Positions 13,490 through 61,379 of a stretch of 64,000 nucleotides of DNA are shown piece by piece. Where the stretch lies: positions 125,430 to 189,429 of IMG/VR virus record IMGVR_UViG_3300029305_004950, one strand, 5' to 3'. Source of the DNA: a virus. Lineage: Duplodnaviria > Heunggongvirae > Uroviricota > Caudoviricetes. Numbering within the stretch: position 1 is the stretch's first letter; every line of letters begins with the position of its first letter. Both the position numbers and the translations under genes were made by a program. Below the pieces are notes generated by a model. It worked only from the letters and a program-made list of their open reading frames with translations. It did not search any database and was not told the DNA's origin.

Positions 13490-15019
13490 ATGGCGACTAA
13501 AAAGAATCTAACATATAACGAAGATAGTATTAAAGTCCAAGAATATCCTGATAATGTAAGATCTAATCCTACAGTCTATATCAGTAGTCTTGGTAAAGAA
13601 GGTAATACGCATCTACTAAGAGAAGTAATTGATAACTCTATTGATGAATTCCTAAATGGTTTTGGTAAAACAATTACAATTGAAATTTCCAATAAAAAAG
13701 GTGTATTTAGAGTAATTGATGAAGGTCGTGGTGTTCCTCCTAAATCTATTGAAAGAGCATTTACTACATTACATGCTTCAGGTAAATTCGATAAAGATAG
13801 TTATAGCACATCAGGTGGTCAGCATGGTCTTGGTAGTACATGTGTTAATGCACTTAGTAAGTATTTCCTTGTCATTACACATGAAGGTGGTCATGAATAC
13901 TCTCAAAGATTTGAATATGGTAAGAAAGTAACTGAACTAAAAGATTTAGGAAAGTCTGATAAGGTAGGTACTATTGTAGAGTTTTGTCCTGATGAATCTG
14001 TAATGGATACATTTGAGATTGACATTGAATCAGTCAAAGATGAATGTAAGATGAAGTCTTTTATCAATAAAGGACTTACTATCATTATTAAGGACATGGA
14101 TGAAAAGAAACAGGCTAAGTATTATCATAAAGATGGTATTGAGGAATACGTACAGTTAAATGCTAAGAAAGCTCTATTTAATCCTATTACATTCTCTACA
14201 TCAACTACTGTTAACAAGGCTAATAAAGAATTGAATGTAGAAATCGATTGTTCCTTTACTTATGATAACTCTACTGATCCTATCAATATTAAATCCTTCT
14301 GTAATTCCATTTATACTAGTGATGGCGGTACTCATGAAACTGGTTTTAAAACAGCTCTTACTAGTTTGATTAAAAAGTATATTGCTGATAATAACCTACT
14401 AACTAAAAAAGATGCAAATCTAGACATTACTGGTGATTCAGTTCAGGAAGGTGTAGTAGCAGTAGTATCTATCAAACATCCTCATCCGATGTATGATCAG
14501 CAGTCTAAGAAAAAGCTTAACTCTACAGAAGTTTCTGGTGCAGTAATGAAAGCAGTTAATGCAGAATTTAGTAAGTGGATTGAAACCCATGCTAAAGAAA
14601 TGAAAGTACTTTGTACTAAAGTAATTGAATCTGCAAAGGCTAACAGTGCTGCTAAGAGAGCTAAAGAACTAGCTAATAAGAAATCTGAAAATGGAATTAC
14701 TGCTGTTTCTGATCTATCAAAATTAGCTAACTGTATTTCTAAGAAACCTGAAGAATGTGAACTGTTTGTAGTTGAGGGTAATTCTGCAAGTTCAAGTGCT
14801 AGAAATGGTAGAGATAAGCAAACTCAGGCTGTTTATGCTCTAAGAGGTAAGATTCTCAATACTAACAATCTAGCTGAAACTAAGATTTTTGAAAATAAGG
14901 AACTATCAGATTTGATTTATATCTTAACTGGTAAGAAAACTGCAATTGGTAAGAATTTCAATGTTGAAGACATGAAGTATCATAAACTGGTAGCCTTGAC
15001 TGATGCTGACGATGACGGT
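13490..15019 (+). CDS. gyrB: type II topoisomerase ATPase subunit (GyrB/ParE-like), exon 1
   Basis: GHKL ATPase motifs EVIDNSIDE, GRGVP, GGQHGLGS; Toprim EGNSASSS and DADDDG. The reading frame hits a stop two codons after the conserved DADxDG motif; the downstream ORF supplies the rest (HIASLILGF...PPLY). Confidence 0.88.
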
Positions 15020-16310
15020 AAATGACACATTAAGTCTGCATCAGTGAGAAATTTTCTAACAATACATTAGTATTAATGTTAGGAGGTTTCATTCAAATGA
15101 AAAATGAAAAAGAAACTAAAGAAAGATATGCTTCTGGTATTGAAAATTGTAAAAAACAAGCTCAAAATCTTAAACAAAAAGCATCTGAAAAATTTTTAAG
15201 TAAAGTTTACGAACAAGTTGGTGATGATTATACTTTTCTGGAAACTTATGTAACGAGTAAAACTAAACTCTGGGTAATACATAATGTTTGTGGACATAAG
15301 TATAGAGTAACTCCAAATGAGTTTACTTCTCATAAAAGACGTTGTCCAAACTGTGCAAATAAAAAAAGAGTACTTAATACTGGAATAAAACCTCATACAT
15401 TAGAATCTATTATTGAAAGTGTAAAAGAATTATCTAATGACGAATATGAGGTAGTTAGTAATGAGTATGAAAATAATAAAGAAAAAATTTGGGTTAGACA
15501 TAAAACATGTAGTTATTCATACCTTGTTCGTTATAATGACTTTCAGCAAGGATATAGATGTCCTTTATGTGCTGACATGAATAAAAGTCAGAATAATTCT
15601 AAACCAATACAGGATATTAAAAGTGTTCTAGATTTTAATAAAATTGAGTATGAATCAGAAGTGTCATTTGAAGAATGTGTAGACAAACGTTTTCTTCCAT
15701 TTGATATATTGGTTTATACTGATAAAGTCAATGATGAATACTTTTTAATTGAGTATGATGGACAACAACATTCTGATCCTAATGCACAATTTGGAGGAAC
15801 TAAAGAAGAAAGACTTATTAGATTTGAGCTAACTCAAAAACATGACACTATAAAAAATGCTTTTTGTGAAGAAAACAGTATAAAACTTTATAGAATTTCT
15901 TATAAAGAAGATTTGATGAGCAAACTAAGAAGTATATTGGAAGAAAATAATCTAATTTGACTTGCAGTGAATGCCGTCTAAAAACCTAGTTAACTGCGGG
16001 AAACTATCAATAAACACTATTTACTAAACTAAGATAGTAATATACTTAGTGGCAATGGGTAACTCCAAAGATATAGTAAAAAGAATAGTGTTTGATACAA
16101 TCGACGCAACGAAGTATCCTACATTTAGTAAAAGATAGGATATGAGTTCAACGACTATCGAAACCAACTAACTTAATGTTAGTAATAAGGTAAGTTGAAA
16201 TACTTACACGAAGGGAGTAGAGTAGGGAAATGTAAATTACAAAGTACCGAAAAGCTAGGCTATACTAATTTAGTATAGAAAATATAGTCTAAATTATGCA
16301 AAGTAATTTG
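15020..16310 (+). mobile_element. group I self-splicing intron with homing-endonuclease ORF in the P1 loop
   Basis: Internal guide GCCGTC (15973-15978) complements the exon-1 end GACGGU with a terminal U-G pair. P-like element AACTGCGGGAAAC (~15992), R element GTTCAACGACTA (16146-16157), S element AAAATATAGTCT (~16279). The intron ends in G (16310), giving an in-frame join DADDDG|LHIASLILGF. Confidence 0.75.
15097..15960 (+). CDS. intron-encoded homing endonuclease candidate: two Zn-ribbon-like modules plus a PD-(D/E)xK (Vsr/DUF559-like) nuclease domain
   Basis: ATG at 15097 with TAGGAGG RBS. Duplicated W..H..C..Y.V....F....RCP.CA modules; C-terminal RFLPFDILVY...LIEYDGQQH resembles the restriction-endonuclease-like fold core. 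Confidence 0.55.
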   Translation: MKNEKETKERYASGIENCKKQAQNLKQKASEKFLSKVYEQVGDDYTFLETYVTSKTKLWVIHNVCGHKYRVTPNEFTSHKRRCPNCANKKRVLNTGIKPHTLESIIESVKELSNDEYEVVSNEYENNKEKIWVRHKTCSYSYLVRYNDFQQGYRCPLCADMNKSQNNSKPIQDIKSVLDFNKIEYESEVSFEECVDKRFLPFDILVYTDKVNDEYFLIEYDGQQHSDPNAQFGGTKEERLIRFELTQKHDTIKNAFCEENSIKLYRISYKEDLMSKLRSILEENNLI

Positions 16311-17135
16311 CTTCACATTGCAAGCCTTATCTTAGGATTTGTATATAGACATGCTAAACCCATTTTGGAAAAAGGTTACATGTATATTGCAATGCCTCCT
16401 CTTTATTCTATCATTGAAAGAAATAAGAAACGTTATTTCTTAAATCAAGAGGAATATGATGCATATATTGAGGAAAAGATTTTTGAAAACTATGTATTTA
16501 GTTGTAATGAGATAGGTTTAAATAAGACTAAAGCTAAAACCATTCTTAAGAATTTTGAAACTTACAAAAACAAAGTAAGTGAACTATCTACTAGTACAGG
16601 TATCAATATGTATTTAATTGATGATGTATGTGATTATTTACGTACTAATGAAAATGCAACAAGTAAGGATATTGTGAATTTATTAAAACAGATTGGTGAT
16701 TTTGAATTCTTTAAGAATGATGAAGGAAATTCTGAGATTAATGGTCTTTATGATAATAGCTTTGTAAATGCAGTAATTAAGGATTTAGTAAAGTCTGCTA
16801 AAAAAGCTAAGAAGATTCTAGAAGATCTTAGTATTCCTGAAGAAGTATTCATCAATGATTATCATCTATCAATTAAGAACTATCAAGACATGTATAACAA
16901 GGTTACACCTAAGTCCAGAAGTCGATTCAAAGGCTTGGGAGAAATGGATGCTAATGAACTTTGGGAAACTACTCTTGATCCTTCAGTTAGAAACATTATG
17001 CAAGTTGTACTATCAGATGAAGAAAAGACAGATGATACTATGGATACACTACTAAATTCTAATAGTAAGTATGCAGACAAACGTAAAGTATTCTTAATGA
17101 AAAATCAGCAAAAGATTAAGGAATTAGAAATCTAA
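16311..17135 (+). CDS. gyrB: type II topoisomerase subunit B, exon 2 (C-terminal)
   Basis: HIASLILGFVYRH...YMYIAMPPLY... matches the GyrB region following DADVDG(S)HI; the KGLGEMDANELWETTLDP block matches the GyrB C-terminus. Confidence 0.85.
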   Translation, partial: LHIASLILGFVYRHAKPILEKGYMYIAMPPLYSIIERNKKRYFLNQEEYDAYIEEKIFENYVFSCNEIGLNKTKAKTILKNFETYKNKVSELSTSTGINMYLIDDVCDYLRTNENATSKDIVNLLKQIGDFEFFKNDEGNSEINGLYDNSFVNAVIKDLVKSAKKAKKILEDLSIPEEVFINDYHLSIKNYQDMYNKVTPKSRSRFKGLGEMDANELWETTLDPSVRNIMQVVLSDEEKTDDTMDTLLNSNSKYADKRKVFLMKNQQKIKELEI

Positions 17136-17146
17136 CTAATACAAAA

Positions 17147-17182
17147 AGAAAGTATCTTATTTTAGATACTTTCTTTTTTTGT
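17147..17182 (+). terminator. rho-independent terminator
   Basis: AAAGAAAGTATCT-loop-AGATACTTTCTTT plus T-run. Confidence 0.6.
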
Positions 17183-17242
17183 TTTAATAGGATTTATAAC
17201 ATTTCTATAATGAAAACTATTTTTAAGGAGTGAAATTACTAT

Positions 17243-17593
17243 ATGGCACAAGTTACTATAGATGCAACTCAGGATTACAAAGTTACTGACATTAGAAAAA
17301 ACGTCAATAATAAGTATGATACTACTATTAAGATGCTTAAGAAGTGGACTATGGAAAACTTCTATTTCAATAACAATGTAGTTCATTATCTACATCCAGA
17401 AGCAGCTTACACTACTCAGATTGATAAATCCATTAGATGTAATGAGGTTGTTTATAAGAAGTCTGAATTCGATACCCCTCTGTCTCATATGATGTACATG
17501 TTCATTGTTATTGGTAAAACAATGGAAGAAGATGAGAGAATTGAAGCTATTGATGCTTTATGTAAGTCAGTTGAGGATGACTCTGTTGTTTGA
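17243..17593 (+). CDS. hypothetical protein
   Basis: 116-aa ORF, AAGGAG RBS. Confidence 0.5.
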   Translation: MAQVTIDATQDYKVTDIRKNVNNKYDTTIKMLKKWTMENFYFNNNVVHYLHPEAAYTTQIDKSIRCNEVVYKKSEFDTPLSHMMYMFIVIGKTMEEDERIEAIDALCKSVEDDSVV

Positions 17594-17722
17594 CTACCAA
17601 TGTTTAGAAAGAATCTAGGTTCAGGAAAACAAAGAAAATTTTGGTAATTTTCTAACTTTCTTTTTAACTATATATAATAAACCTGTCATAAAAATCAAAC
17701 ATTTTTAAGGAGGACATTAGTT

Positions 17723-18160
17723 ATGTATAGTTTTGGTAAGGAAGTAAGAGATCTAAAAGAAGCAGAAAAAGTTACGATTGATCTAATTGAAAATGGTAAG
17801 TTTAATGAATTTTTAGAAAAAACAAACATTGACAAAGACTTTTTAATTAGTAAGATTGAAGTGGCAGAATGTTTTACATTAGGAATTGACTATGATATCT
17901 GTCTAGAAGATTGCTTTAATCCAGAAACTCAGCAGTCGATTATTGATGAAATCAAACAGCGAGAAGGCTATGCTGACAATTCTTTAATTGTTGGAGATTG
18001 TTCTGTATATCTAGAAGATTCTGATAAGATGCTTTTTGGTTATTTCCTATGTAGTGATGTTTTCTCTAATACCAATACTGATAGCATGCTTCTACTATCT
18101 GTAGGTTTTGCTCTAGGAGAAGATATTGCCAATGCAACTAAGCAGTTTGTAACTTTATAA
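17723..18160 (+). CDS. hypothetical protein
   Basis: 145-aa ORF, AAGGAGG RBS. Confidence 0.5.
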   Translation: MYSFGKEVRDLKEAEKVTIDLIENGKFNEFLEKTNIDKDFLISKIEVAECFTLGIDYDICLEDCFNPETQQSIIDEIKQREGYADNSLIVGDCSVYLEDSDKMLFGYFLCSDVFSNTNTDSMLLLSVGFALGEDIANATKQFVTL

Positions 18161-47979: not shown

Positions 47980-48312
47980 TTGACAATTCAAGAAAAAAGA
48001 AAAAAGATAGAAACTATGATTATCAATACTATGAACTTAATGGATAAGACTGGTAGTAACGGAAACAAGTATAAAGTCTTTTTTAAATCTATGAATGATG
48101 ATCAATTTTCTAAATGGGCAAAAAATTTCTTAAAAGATGATGAGGAAAATTTTTATATGGAAATCTTACCATATAAAAATGAACCAAAGCTAAAAGATTT
48201 AATTGAAGCTGGAGAATACCTAGATGTTCCATTAGATGAGTATATATACTATCGTGATAATGGAAATATGGATAATCCAATTAGAAGTAAGTATAAAGTA
48301 CCAGTTGGGTAA
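47980..48312 (+). CDS. hypothetical protein; possible 5' exon of an intron-split gene
   Basis: TTG start with AAAGGAGG RBS. Stop lies about 35 nt before a group I intron P element. Confidence 0.45.
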   Translation: MTIQEKRKKIETMIINTMNLMDKTGSNGNKYKVFFKSMNDDQFSKWAKNFLKDDEENFYMEILPYKNEPKLKDLIEAGEYLDVPLDEYIYYRDNGNMDNPIRSKYKVPVG

Positions 48313-48752
48313 AAGAATTCATTATATGCTCAACTTATAAATTTTCTTTAAATGCTGGAAATACTCATTTAGTAAAGAGTTAATCAGCAGCTAAAAAATT
48401 AAATGAATTTTTGTTTATATATTTTAATTACGTTCCCAACTCCATGAGATCGTAAAAGTATTCTAAAAACCCTGAGAATACTAATGAGTATAGTTTTAAG
48501 GCTGGTCTATACTCATCCCTCCTTTCCAAAAGTATATAATCAAAAAATCATTTTTGAAGAAGTCTTTACAGGTGACTTCTTTTTTTTTAGTTCAACGACT
48601 ATTTTTGTAGGATTTAAATGAATCTGAAATAAGAAAACTATCTTATATGATAGAAGATATAGTCTAAACTTTATTGAAATATAAAGATTAGTGTAGATTA
48701 ATGGACTACACACTTGAAATAATGATATAATGATACGCAAACTCCAACAGAT
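48313..48752 (+). mobile_element. group I intron core (P/Q/R/S) between two same-frame ORFs, boundaries approximate
   Basis: P AAATGCTGGAAAT 48350-48362, Q AATCAGCAGC 48382-48391, R GTTCAACGACTA 48590-48601, S AAGATATAGTCT 48654-48665, followed by P9-type hairpins. Confidence 0.55.
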
Positions 48753-49167
48753 GTTGATGAAAAAGAACTCTTATAGCCTATCAATAGATTCTCGTAATCT
48801 ACGTACAAATCAGCTTTCTGGCGATGACAAAGTAGCTAGATTAACTGAAGCGGAGAACTTTGCATCCTCAATTTGGGGAATCGAGGATGGATTAAAAGAG
48901 ATGATGGGTCCAAGAGCTGATGATAGTGTAGCTAAAACACAGCTATATAAACAAATAGCACAACAGGGTTATTGTTCTCTAAATGATATAGAAAATGATC
49001 CAGCTAATAAATACACTCTTAATACAGTTGATGTATTTATGATAGGCGCTGGATTAATGTCAGACTTAGTAACTGATGGCTTAGAATTGCGTAGAACTGA
49101 AGATGCTAGAAAACGTAGAACTTCTACATCTGAAAGAATCTCTGATAAAACTGAACGAAAAGATTAA
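48730..49167 (+). CDS. hypothetical protein; possible 3' exon (Arg/Asp-rich, composition differs from neighbours)
   Basis: 145-aa ORF in the same frame as 47980..48312, beginning inside or at the 3' end of the intron core. Confidence 0.4.
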   Translation: MIRKLQQMLMKKNSYSLSIDSRNLRTNQLSGDDKVARLTEAENFASSIWGIEDGLKEMMGPRADDSVAKTQLYKQIAQQGYCSLNDIENDPANKYTLNTVDVFMIGAGLMSDLVTDGLELRRTEDARKRRTSTSERISDKTERKD

Positions 49168-58410: not shown

Positions 58411-58586
58411 TTTAATTCTCCTTTGTAGTAATAAAATACTAGTAAACTCAATCTATGTTCACTATAGTTAAAATATATGTATATAAAGTGTAAAAATACG
58501 AATTTTTTCATAAAAAACAATAGAAAACTATAAATTACTAATCATTAAACTTGATTAATTTTTATAAAGGAAGGAAAATAAGAATT

Positions 58587-59180
58587 ATGGGTTTATTAAA
58601 AGCACAGTTTAACAAGGCTATTGATAATGGTAAGTTAGGTAAAAAAGTAGAATATATTCCTTTTTATCGTACGGGTATTGATATTTTTGACTATATTAAT
58701 GGTGTAAGAAAAGCAGATGGTACTATGGACTTAGGTATCCAAGGCGGTAGAATCATGATGGATATTGGTCAGTCTGGTACTGGTAAGACTTCTAAGATTA
58801 TTCAGCAGGCATGTTATATCGCCGATCAGTTTGAAGAAGCAGACGTATGGCATTATGATTATGAAAGATCTACTAGTAAGGAACGTGTTATGGCTCTAAC
58901 TGGTTGGTCTTCTGATCATTATGATGAAAAGTATCAAATTTTCCAAGAGAATATTTCTGTAGAAACTCTATTTAGAGCTTGTAAAGAAATTGAAAAGATT
59001 AAGATGGAAAATAAAGAAGCTATTCAGATTGATACTGGTAGAAAAGATGGCAGTGGTAAACCTGTTTACATCTTACCTCCTACAATTATGATTGTAGACT
59101 CCGTCGCTATGTTAGCTCCTGAAGATGTCGAGGATGATGATGAACTAAAGGGATCAATGGGTAAACTTGCAATTGCATAA
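58587..59180 (+). CDS. uvsX: UvsX/RecA-like recombinase, exon 1 (3' end approximate)
   Basis: ATG at 58587 with AAGGAAGGA RBS. Walker A GQSGTGKTS. IMIVDSVAMLAPE matches RecA/UvsX VIDSLGNL / VVDSVAAL. The frame stops at 59180 inside the conserved core, about 25 nt before an intron P element. Confidence 0.8.
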   Translation: MGLLKAQFNKAIDNGKLGKKVEYIPFYRTGIDIFDYINGVRKADGTMDLGIQGGRIMMDIGQSGTGKTSKIIQQACYIADQFEEADVWHYDYERSTSKERVMALTGWSSDHYDEKYQIFQENISVETLFRACKEIEKIKMENKEAIQIDTGRKDGSGKPVYILPPTIMIVDSVAMLAPEDVEDDDELKGSMGKLAIA

Positions 59181-60196
59181 TGTGCTCATTTAAAACTCAC
59201 TTAATTGCTGGAAAAACTAATTTAGAAAATCAGCAGCTTATAAACAGTTGAAAAAATTATTGCACTAATTTTCGCACCCAAAATCTAACATATAATTAAA
59301 TTCTATATGTTAGGAGTTGTAAAAATGAAAATAGATTTTCAAAGTTTTATGGTTGGATGTTGTTTAGGTGATTCTAGTTTTGAATTTAGAGCTAGAACAG
59401 ATACATTTGATAGAATTTCATTTGGACATAAGATAGAGAATAAAGATTATGTTGATTTAAAGAAAAATATTTTATCTGAAAATAACATAGAGTTTTCAGA
59501 ATTAAAAGGATTAAGTATGACTAATATCTGTCGTTTTAGAATTTCTTATTCAAAATATAGTGAGTTAATTGAAACTTATTATGAATTAACTAGAAATAAT
59601 GATAGAAGTAGAAAACTTCCATCAATTGAGTATATTACTCCAACTACTCTTTTCTTTTGGTTTTTAGATGATGGTTATACTACAGCTAGAAATTGTAAAA
59701 ATAAGAGTTCTAAAATTTCTGGTTATGTTAGAACTGAAATAGGAATTGCTTTAAAGAGCTATGCTGACGAGGATATTATGAACTTAACACCTCAAATCAA
59801 TGAAAAATTTGGTTTAAATTTTACTTATAAGTATGATTACTATAATGGTACTAAAAAGATTAAAGATATTATCCTTTCAAAAAAGAAAGACCAATATAAG
59901 TTTTTGGATCTTATGTATCAATTTAAAGAAATTTTACCTGTAAGTATGGAATATAAATTCTGTCTTTGTGAAATACCTAAACGAAATGGAATTAGTGTAG
60001 ATACAAGATACAATATGTGTGATGTACATGAAACTGGATTTTGTACATGTAGAGAAAAAGATTTCTCTAATTGTTTATAAGTTCAACGACTATGTCATTG
60101 CAAGTGCAATGTGAATATTGAGTACTGGAAACAGTAAAGATATAGTCTAATCTAAGTAGTAATACTTAGAAGAAGAACTAACAATTCTTCAAATAA
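59181..60196 (+). mobile_element. group I intron 1 in the recombinase gene, carrying a LAGLIDADG homing endonuclease gene in a peripheral loop (boundaries approximate)
   Basis: P AATTGCTGGAAAA 59203-59215, Q AATCAGCAGC 59227-59236, then the ORF, then R GTTCAACGACTA 60081-60092 directly after the ORF stop, and S AAGATATAGTCT 60137-60148. Confidence 0.75.
59325..60080 (+). CDS. LAGLIDADG-family homing endonuclease (double-motif)
   Basis: ATG at 59325 with TAGGAG RBS. Motif 1 FMVGCCLGDSSF, motif 2 LFFWFLDDGYTT. Confidence 0.65.
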   Translation: MKIDFQSFMVGCCLGDSSFEFRARTDTFDRISFGHKIENKDYVDLKKNILSENNIEFSELKGLSMTNICRFRISYSKYSELIETYYELTRNNDRSRKLPSIEYITPTTLFFWFLDDGYTTARNCKNKSSKISGYVRTEIGIALKSYADEDIMNLTPQINEKFGLNFTYKYDYYNGTKKIKDIILSKKKDQYKFLDLMYQFKEILPVSMEYKFCLCEIPKRNGISVDTRYNMCDVHETGFCTCREKDFSNCL

Positions 60197-60328
60197 AAGC
60201 TGGCAACAGCAATTGCAAAGGCAAATACTAACGTTTTTAAGCGTATTATGTCTCCTATGCAGAATGCTAACATTATTCTAATGCTAGTTAATCATATTAC
60301 ACAGAAAATTGATAGATTTTTGTCAATG
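60197..60328 (+). CDS. uvsX: UvsX/RecA-like recombinase, internal micro-exon
   Basis: Open frame KLATAIAKANTNVFKRIMSPMQNANIILMLVNHITQKIDRFLSM. It aligns with RecA [26 protein letters not shown] and T4 UvsX CIAINHTYETQEMFSKTVM. Bounded upstream by intron-1 S and downstream by the intron-2 P element. Confidence 0.55.
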
Positions 60329-60758
60329 TAAAATCTTAAGAATTGCTGGAAAAATCGATAAGATAAATCAGCATCCCTTATATTAAGGGTTCAACGACTA
60401 TATACTATAGAAATCTATAGTTAGTATAAGACTTAGAAGATATAGTCTGAACTTCTATGAAAATAGAAGACTTAAGTACGATTAATGAACGTACTAATAA
60501 TACAATTGATTAATCCGATGGCTCGAACCAAGGCTCAGATAAACTATCTTAAGCAGGATGAGTCAATTCCAGGTAAACTATTTACTGCCTGATGTATATT
60601 CTTAAATGCTGGAAAATTTATAAAACAATCAGCATCTAGTATTTTATACTAGTTCAACGACTAATTTTACTTTTCAAATGAAAAGGAAATGGAATCTTTG
60701 AAGATATAGTCTCAACTTCTATGGAAACATAGAGAAATTTGTAGCTTAATAAACTACA
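60329..60758 (+). mobile_element. two tandem minimal group I intron cores (introns 2 and 3) in the recombinase gene
   Basis: Core A: P 60341-60353, Q 60365-60374, R 60389-60400, S 60437-60448. Core B: P 60604-60616, Q 60627-60636, R 60652-60663, S 60701-60712. Each has P6/P8/P9-type hairpins. An in-frame stop at 60750 forces the 3' splice site to between 60753 and about 60775. Confidence 0.6.
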
Positions 60759-61379
60759 ATGAAGAAATGTAAAAAATTGGGTAAAGCAGTTTCTTACCTA
60801 ACTAATACACTAACTAAACTAGAAACAGGCTCTAAGCTAGAAACTGATAAGGAATTTGGTATTAAGGGTTTCTATCTATCTGGTATTCTAGTTAAGTCTC
60901 GTTCTACTGAAGCTGGTGTATCCTTTAAGATGGTATTTGAACAGAAGAAGGGTGTTAATAACCTACTAACAAACTTTGCTAATCTTAAGGATCTAGGTCG
61001 TATCACTGGTGCAGGTCGTAGCTTTAAACTAGATACTTGTCCTGATGTTAAGTTCTCTATTAAGGAATTCCAGAATAAGTACTATGAATCTGCAGAACTT
61101 AGAAAAGCTTTTGATGCAGCAGTTCATGAAGAATATTCTAAGTTCCTACCTGAAGCTGGTGTTGCACCTAGTCAGTCTATTGATATGAATAAGCTAGATG
61201 AACTAATTGAAGATGATGTTAAGTCTGCAGGTAAGAAATCTAGTAAGACAACTAAAACTACTAAAGCAACTACTTATGAACTAGTAGATGAAGAAAATGG
61301 TGTTTACCAAGGTACAGATGGTAAGTACTATATCATCGAGAATGGTGAATATGTAGAAGTAGAATATGAAGAAGAATAA
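60759..61379 (+). CDS. uvsX: UvsX/RecA-like recombinase, 3' exon
   Basis: GKAVSYLTNTL...GFYLSGILVKSRSTEAGVSFKMVF aligns with T4 UvsX GPMYSADTVF...GYQFVLNVEKSRTVKEKSKFFIDV and RecA GNALKFYASVRLDIRR; acidic C-terminal tail as in UvsX. Confidence 0.75.
   Translation: MKKCKKLGKAVSYLTNTLTKLETGSKLETDKEFGIKGFYLSGILVKSRSTEAGVSFKMVFEQKKGVNNLLTNFANLKDLGRITGAGRSFKLDTCPDVKFSIKEFQNKYYESAELRKAFDAAVHEEYSKFLPEAGVAPSQSIDMNKLDELIEDDVKSAGKKSSKTTKTTKATTYELVDEENGVYQGTDGKYYIIENGEYVEVEYEEE

Follow-up and report, generated by a model that had tools for sequence, protein, structure and literature searches.

A probable mobile group I intron with an endonuclease gene in its P1 loop interrupts the gyrB-like gene of a jumbo phage

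Why should a phage gene for the B subunit of DNA gyrase break off inside the metal-binding motif of its own Toprim domain, with the rest of the protein encoded beyond another reading frame? The question is raised by a stretch of 64,000 nucleotides, positions 125,430 to 189,429 of the Caudoviricetes record IMGVR_UViG_3300029305_004950, which we refer to as the window and in whose coordinates all positions are given; every feature of the gyrB-like locus described below lies on its + strand. Our answer is that the virus, an AR9/PBS1-like jumbo phage, very probably carries a mobile group I intron of 1291 nt (15020-16310) that splits its gyrB-like gene within that motif (DADDDG|LH) and houses an endonuclease gene in the loop of its P1 helix. 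What we could establish directly for this element is its sequence, its potential for structure, its homology to and covariation with relatives, the existence of an intron-less allele and the fold of its protein.

The two parts of the gene are readily recognized. Exon 1 (13490-15019; 510 codons) encodes the ATPase domain, the transducer and the beginning of Toprim, and ends in DADDDG. The open reading frame (ORF) to which it belongs extends from 13490 to 15025 (511 amino acids, ending ...LTDADDDGK), and its Pfam matches are HATPase_c, DNA_gyraseB and, over profile positions 1-69 of 96 only, Toprim. An earlier reading of this DNA from its letters alone (the sequence-only reading) had placed the stop two codons past this motif. 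The position of the stop was correct, an in-frame TGA at 15023-15025 being evident from the sequence and the ORF list, but the wording was not, as a single sense codon (AAA) precedes it; the frame of exon 1 is thus closed one sense codon inside the intron. Exon 2 (16311-17135, stop codon included) supplies the remainder of Toprim and the GyrB C-terminal domain. Its frame, which opens with LHIASLILGF at the position proposed earlier, reads LHIASLILGFVYRH...PPLY from 16311 and matches DNA_gyraseB_C. A strong intrinsic-terminator-like hairpin lies 3' of exon 2 (17143-17178), and because the terminator scan found none between the two exons, exons and intron probably form one transcript.

An uninterrupted form of the gene is found on a 299-kb IMG/VR contig (L005), where a continuous GyrB of 783 amino acids is 89% identical to the window protein over exon 1 and 73% identical over exon 2. 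Across the site L005 reads ...DADDDGLHIASLILGFVYRH... (also given as ...LTDADDDGLHIASLILGFVYRH...), which corresponds to DADDDG-LHIASLILGF, the join predicted for the window. Excision of 15020-16310 yields an intact frame with exactly this sequence, and the in-frame join at U15019/G16310 put forward by the sequence-only reading therefore equals the uninterrupted L005 gene. Around the site, the spliced window sequence would read ...GATGCTGACGATGACGGTCTTCACATTGCAAGC..., where the matching L005 allele has ...GACGCGGACGACGATGGATTACACATAGCAAGT..., and the predicted ligated RNA junction is GACGGU|CUUCAC (...GAUGACGGU|CUUCACAUU). A further 21 IMG/VR homologues are continuous at DADDDG-xHI, as are those of AR9 and PBS1; patchiness of this kind among homologues is understandable because a mobile intron is expected to be sporadic. 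When the five codons on each side of the junction (window 15005-15019 and 16311-16325) are compared with L005 3986-4015, the amino acids are identical and 7 of the 10 codons differ synonymously, relative to a gene-wide rate of 38%. This fits divergence of an endonuclease target or co-conversion, although the sample is small and not conclusive. The L005 site itself reads GAUGGA|UUA, with which no pairing of the window's guide is expected.

How would the ribozyme find its 5' splice site? The hexamer GCCGTC at 15973-15978 had been singled out as an internal guide for the exon end GACGGU, and we arrive at the same pairing. The 5' strand of P1 (GACGGU|A, 15014-15020, with the splice site after U15019) pairs with 15972-15978 to give a helix of 6 bp, of which five are Watson-Crick and the terminal one is the U15019-G15973 wobble; the helix reaches 7 bp when A15020-U15972 is included. 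GCCGTC has a single occurrence on the + strand of the window, and on its own the hexamer is weak evidence, with 0.88 matches expected on both strands. The complete guide (15967-15978), however, consists of GUGAA (15967-15971), which contributes to P10, followed by U-GCCGUC (15972-15978), which contributes to P1. This 12-nt composite, GTGAANGCCGTC, is unique in the window, with an expectation of 0.09 even when one mismatch is allowed. GUGAA pairs with UUCAC at 16312-16316, positions +2 to +6 of exon 2. Such a layout, in which the P10 part comes first and the P1 part follows on its 3' side, is classical for group I introns, and the terminal nucleotide of the intron is G16310. We consider the guide to be more than a chance match because of its P10 pairing, the presence of a group I core 6 nt downstream and the standard pairs found in all helices. 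It had been described as lying just after the endonuclease ORF; the order is as stated, and the spacing can now be given as 12 nt past the stop codon. The large P1 loop so formed appears to be closed by an extension of P1, found by cofolding the loop ends, in which UAAGUC (15031-15036) pairs with GACUUG (15959-15964), the latter overlapping the endonuclease stop codon. Three other candidates were considered and rejected. GTTGTC at 15341, apart from the guide the only intron hexamer that could pair with GACGGU, is inside the ORF and has no adjacent core. Shifting the splice register by -1 would leave the protein unchanged and break the rules of U at position -1 and of a terminal G, and a shift of +1 would produce the protein sequence G-I-H and an intron ending in C.

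The ribozyme core (15985-16310) comprises P3 to P9 and the terminal G (16310), and was delineated by alignment to the Rfam model RF00028 (Intron_gpI), by checking its pairs, by a minimum-free-energy (MFE) fold and by a family hidden Markov model. P3 (15985-15990/16254-16259) encloses P4 (15995-16000/16101-16108), P5 (16005-16009/16093-16097, with a P5 extension at 16014-16091), P6 (16109-16110/16146-16147) and P6a (16115-16121/16136-16142). P7 (16151 and 16153-16157/16285-16290) has a bulged C16152 followed by the guanosine-binding pair G16153-C16289. The remaining helices are P7.1 (16167-16172/16178-16183), P7.2 (16190-16195/16202-16207), P8 (16260-16267/16271-16278) and P9 (16291-16296/16304-16309). 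When written out in window coordinates, P1, P3, P4, P5, P6, P6a, P7, P8, P9 and P10 are made of standard pairs throughout. A search of 15940-16340 (401 nt) with RF00028 returned an end-to-end alignment over model positions 1-253 (16.5 bits, E=0.07) that displays J3/4-P4 (UAACUGCGGGAAA), P4'/P6, J6/7-P7 (GUUCAACGACUA) and J8/7-P7' (AAAAUAUAGUCU). Structure modelling of the 3' part of the intron together with its distant P1, which had been suggested as a check, also came out in favor of a group I fold: the P1 pairs are standard, and the unconstrained MFE fold of 15961-16310 (z = -2.8) recovers P3 enclosing P4-P6, then P7.1, P7.2 and P8. P7 is not visible in this fold because it forms a pseudoknot with P3. 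On the basis of the modelled hairpins at 16167-16183 (P7.1) and 16190-16207 (P7.2), and with P2 absent, the intron is assigned to the IA type (IA2-like).

Does the endonuclease gene really occupy P1? Evidence comes from Staphylococcus phage PALS_2 (MN091626), Bacillus phage vB_BpuM-BpSp (BpSp; KT895374) and Bacillus phage Internexus (MW749003), in which gyrB is broken after GAT GAC GGT, at the same nucleotide as in the window. The BpSp and Internexus introns have no ORF, and their guides lie close to the splice site: GACGGU-GAAAUGAUU-GCCGUC in BpSp, with a P1 loop of 9 nt, and GACGGU-GAAAUGAUUUGAUA-GCUGUC in Internexus, with a loop of 14 nt. In PALS_2, the guide GCUGUC directly follows the stop codon of a 288-amino-acid ORF that is 35% identical to the window ORF, so that PALS_2 and the window share the order splice site, ORF, guide, P3; the helix closing the PALS_2 loop is much longer than the window's P1 extension of 6 bp. 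The guide is separated from P3 by 6 nt in the window, as it is in the relatives without an ORF. Since the guide is near the splice site in those relatives and past the ORF in the window and PALS_2, the ORF must be regarded as an insertion into the P1 loop, in agreement with the sequence-only reading. P10 covaries in all four introns, pairing with a different sequence in each (GUGAA/UUCAC, UGUAA/UUACA, AUGAU/AUCAU and UGAUA/UAUCA), and its guide part always abuts the 5' side of the P1 part.

Covariation, assessed by counting pairs on an alignment of 11 relatives, points the same way. Paired combinations fill 96.7% of the cells, four of the six P3 pairs have changed on both sides, P4 and P7 are otherwise invariant, and in P4 the window carries a double change from U-A to G-C relative to all the others. 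The covariation score of 0.239 compares with 0.104 for shuffled alignments (0 of 500 reach it) and with at most 0.107 for slid partners. The P5 extension, P6a, P8 and P9 were not reliably aligned by MAFFT, and these helices were checked sequence by sequence. When 13 related introns, not including that of the window, were made into an nhmmer profile, it matched 15969-16290 over its full length (E=1.4e-14). For the Internexus intron, which occupies the same codon of gyrB, the RF00028 score is 64.7 bits, above the threshold of 50. Ribozyme identity between the window and PALS_2, BpSp and Internexus is 51-64%. A nucleotide search against the phage collection returned tiny matches only, and the window intron therefore has no close relative in that collection. 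The gyrB introns of two further loci (L068 and L070) are at other codons and are not comparable.

The gene in the loop (15097-15960) encodes a protein of 287 amino acids. An AGGAGG lies 8 nt upstream of its ATG at 15097; a longer version starting from the ATG at 15076 would be without such a site. In the AlphaFold model (pLDDT 91), a long helix at the N terminus is followed by two zinc-finger modules and, at the C terminus, an alpha/beta domain; the modules and this domain correspond to two treble-clef zinc fingers (Pfam DUF4379/CapR) and a Vsr-like nuclease domain of the PD-(D/E)xK superfamily. The protein also matches PHROG 559 (1e-53), which is labelled 'HNH endonuclease'. Among 31 homologues scanned, the window protein included, DUF2726 was found in 13 and DUF559 in 3, and the HNH models of Pfam matched neither the window protein nor any other member of this set. 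The 'HNH endonuclease' label of PHROG 559 and RefSeq thus appears to be a misnomer for a nuclease with a Vsr-like fold. D203, E219, D250 and K253 are invariant in the 31 homologues and H225, within IEYDGQQHSD, is nearly so; all are present in the window protein, and the Vsr-like catalytic domain is present with them. Given the zinc fingers, the Vsr-like domain and the conserved residues, we predict a Vsr-like homing endonuclease that may work in the manner of the EDxHD type. Homologues adjoin group I cores in many phages, where they occupy various loops. In Yersinia phage phiR1-37 (L004 1587-2677), a topoisomerase B-subunit gene is split elsewhere, at about residue 434 of the window protein, and the insert holds g313, a homologue of the window endonuclease with 29% identity.

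Several observations weigh against a functional intron of this kind and need to be set beside the evidence above. A gathering-threshold Rfam scan of the whole window was empty, and a scan of 1.8 kb at E<=1 missed the intron; its score of 16.5 bits is well below the RF00028 gathering score of 50. The low score can be attributed to divergence, to the lack of P2 and of P9.1/P9.2, and to a P1 strand that lies about 950 nt away and is invisible to the model. The P9.1/P9.2 elements (about 60 nt), which are present in the three other gyrB-site introns, are themselves missing; what stands before the terminal G is just a weak P9 made entirely of A-U pairs, and G16310 would be locked into a competing hairpin, GCAAA-GUAA-UUUGC (-4.1 kcal/mol). 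Two P1 strands about 950 nt apart in a translated bacterial mRNA are kinetically awkward. For the endonuclease, a PDB sequence search, profile included, gave no match at E<=0.01, and no sequence similarity to any characterised enzyme was detectable. Splicing itself is something we infer from the sequence.

Taken together, the shortened 3' domain with its weak P9, the low Rfam score and the hairpin competing for G16310 could mean that the intron is decayed and splices inefficiently, leaving gyrB a pseudogene or in need of a helper protein. We consider this improbable, however. The core helices and the guanosine-binding pair are all intact, the U-A to G-C change in P4 is compensatory, and the reading frames of the endonuclease and of the two exons are open and conserved. 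Moreover, the intron-bearing locus recurs in a second metagenome (JGI 3300018475; L160, 3851 nt, equivalent to window 14199-18049) with a single difference, a substitution at 15351 (C/G) that replaces N85 of the endonuclease by K in its CPNC zinc-finger motif. A further point against decay is that some phage group I introns can do without structures 3' of P9.0.

Alternatively, there may be no splicing at all. The T4 topoisomerase genes 39 and 60 provide a model in which halves are separately translated, and an endonuclease cassette could likewise have cut gyrB into two genes whose products reassemble. The stop codon at 15023-15025 does close exon 1, exon 2 is preceded at a distance of five codons by an in-frame ATG (16296), and the GenBank records of PALS_2, BpSp and Internexus present their gyrB homologues as two 'DNA gyrase subunit B' coding sequences with no intron annotated. 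This explanation strikes us as quite improbable. No Shine-Dalgarno sequence precedes the ATG at 16296 (aaaatatagtctaaattATG), whereas gyrB and the endonuclease gene have AGGAGG-type sites, and this ATG is located inside P9. In addition, the break falls inside the acidic motif of Toprim, the relatives lacking an ORF are broken at the same nucleotide with only a ribozyme between the halves, and it would be an unexplained coincidence that a complete ribozyme is present with a guide able to pair with the ends of both exons. That a genuine intron uses some other guide close to the 5' splice site, with the ORF in P2 or another loop, is very hard to credit even though most described phage intron ORFs are in P5, P6, P8 or P9 loops (I-Bth0305I, for example, in P5; PMC3239194) and relatives in RNA polymerase genes have ORFs after P7', as no other hexamer outside the ORF pairs with GACGGU, 15967-15978 keeps the 6-nt distance to P3 of the ORF-less relatives and supplies P10, and the order of elements in PALS_2 is identical.

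If the gyrB-like gene is interrupted by a group I intron with its endonuclease gene in P1, as we favor, expression of the locus would proceed along the following lines. The gyrB exons and the intron would be transcribed as one unit, in which P1 would form between the last six exon nucleotides with A15020 and UGCCGUC (15972-15978), some 950 nt farther on, and the short helix 15031-15036/15959-15964 would tie off the loop that contains the endonuclease gene. The core (P3-P9, 15985-16309) would bind guanosine at G16153-C16289 in P7 and direct its attack after U15019. GUGAA (15967-15971) would then hold exon 2 through P10 while G16310 docks, and ligation would give GAC GGU|CUU CAC and an intact GyrB-like protein. 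The endonuclease is predicted to cut intron-less alleles near the insertion site, and repair would copy the intron in, the process known as homing.

Such an arrangement raises the question of how one RNA could serve both the ribozyme and the ribosome. The Shine-Dalgarno sequence (AGGAGG, 15083-15088) and start codon of the endonuclease gene are covered by a predicted hairpin at 15041-15100 (MFE -17.3 kcal/mol, z = -4.38; none of 200 shuffled sequences folds as well), the stem of which has at least 14 bp, GAAAUUUUCUAACA/UGUUAGGAGGUUUC, lengthened by UCA/UGA. Since the ribosome-binding site is buried and the ORF ends within the P1 extension, its stop codon 12 nt away from the guide, any one RNA can probably either be translated into the endonuclease or form P1/P10, but not both at once. 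Ribosomes on the endonuclease ORF would prevent P1/P10 from forming, and the hairpin would keep most transcripts competent for splicing.

The same ribozyme lineage is found at a second gene. In the IMG/VR loci L126-L135 and L138, from other phages, related introns with the guide GCYGUC follow GACGGT in an RNA-polymerase beta'-like gene, where the exon ends in ...NADFDG, the catalytic motif of RNA polymerase beta', which is unrelated to the Toprim motif DADDDG. Their P1 loops are 8-18 nt long, and several have ORFs after P7' that look HNH-like by eye from their N-terminal sequences. These relatives were found with a pattern that requires the guide GCYGUC, and the sample accordingly consists only of introns with that guide. 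Among the introns at the gyrB site, L136 shares 73% identity with the polymerase-site introns L130 and L135 but only 51-69% with others at its own site. This closeness of L136 to the polymerase-site introns hints at site switching by way of the shared target, and the sequences suggest that the lineage may have moved between gyrB and polymerase sites that have only a 6-nt target in common.

One rather doubtful possibility is that two linked processes are at work here. In the first, the Shine-Dalgarno hairpin would serve as a switch between splicing and endonuclease expression, so that each RNA is used for one or the other. In the second, the ribozyme lineage would have spread ectopically by reverse splicing through its 6-nt guide alone, and different endonuclease genes would have been gained later in different loops. 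We advance this linked proposal only tentatively and think it less likely to hold than to fail.

The intron in gyrB is not alone in the window, which has at least four further group I cores, all missed by Rfam. The ORFs at 47980-48312 and 48730-49167 (both on the + strand) match positions 3-106 and 111-223 of 225 in the PHROG profile 'RNA polymerase beta subunit'. The spacer of about 415 nt between them has no long ORF and contains a P4 (AAAUGCUGGAAA...AAUCAGCAG) together with GTTCAACGACTA (48590) and AGATATAGTCT (48655); it is probably another group I intron missed by the gathering scan. Farther along the + strand, a fragment of a UvsX-like recombinase (58551-59180, matching positions 17-195 of the 506 in PHROG 97) precedes a LAGLIDADG endonuclease ORF (59307-60080), beyond which three pairs of group I P7/P7' motifs (60081/60138, 60389/60438 and 60652/60702) lie ahead of an ORF at 60759-61379. 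Over 58551-61379, this looks like a recombinase gene broken by up to three tandem introns.

To what extent is an element of this type already known? Mobile group I introns in the DNA-metabolism genes of phages are textbook material (PMC3984707), and for AR9-like and MarsHill-like jumbo phages introns have been reported in genes that include those for gyrB and RNA polymerase (bioRxiv 10.1101/2020.12.14.422802). Closest are the introns of PALS_2, BpSp and Internexus, which share the insertion point DADDDG|, the guide GCYGUC and a core with P7.1/P7.2. PALS_2 in addition has a homologous endonuclease gene (35% identity) between splice site and guide. The window intron differs from these three in lacking P9.1/P9.2, and BpSp and Internexus differ from it in having no ORF. 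Among other mobile phage IA introns, those in T4 td, nrdB and nrdD (sunY) resemble it in their IA core, their residence in an essential DNA-metabolism gene at a site encoding a catalytic motif, the placement of an endonuclease ORF in a peripheral loop, the early in-frame stop and a ribosome-binding site buried in RNA structure. Unlike them, the window intron carries its ORF in P1, not P6a or P9.1, has no P2 and encodes a Vsr-like endonuclease with zinc fingers rather than a GIY-YIG or HNH enzyme. I-Bth0305I, the EDxHD prototype (PMC3239194; PDB 3r3p), has N-terminal NUMOD2/helix-turn-helix repeats and is encoded in P5 of a recA intron, whereas the window protein has treble-clef zinc fingers and a location in P1, and no sequence similarity between the two is detectable.

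Precedent for the ORF position itself comes from myxomycetes, whose nuclear S1389 rDNA introns carry endonuclease genes in P1 (PMC8395846). There, too, the gene is in sense orientation and forms an extension of P1, and the 5' splice site is far from the guide. Those introns, however, reside in eukaryotic rRNA, which is untranslated, and their enzymes are of the His-Cys box class, whereas the window intron lies in a translated phage mRNA. Literature searches turned up no intron of a phage or bacterium that has an ORF in its P1 loop, which is not proof that none has been described. The element thus belongs to an established class of mobile phage introns, in which its ORF occupies an uncommon place; PALS_2 already shows this architecture, though it is not annotated there.

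These results have consequences for how such loci are read. What would be annotated as two 'gyrase B' ORFs with a 'hypothetical' or 'HNH' ORF between them is better described as one gene and a mobile intron, and the same correction is due for the GenBank records of PALS_2, BpSp and Internexus. The endonuclease family, which combines zinc fingers with a Vsr-like nuclease and has been mislabelled HNH, is large and biochemically uncharacterised, and it could yield new nucleases with long targets. Finally, the locus offers a clear case of an endonuclease gene housed in P1 within a translated phage mRNA, for which the ORF-less sister introns represent the state before invasion. With these sisters available for comparison, it should be a convenient system in which to ask how a ribozyme tolerates the separation of its P1 strands by about 950 nt in the presence of ribosomes.

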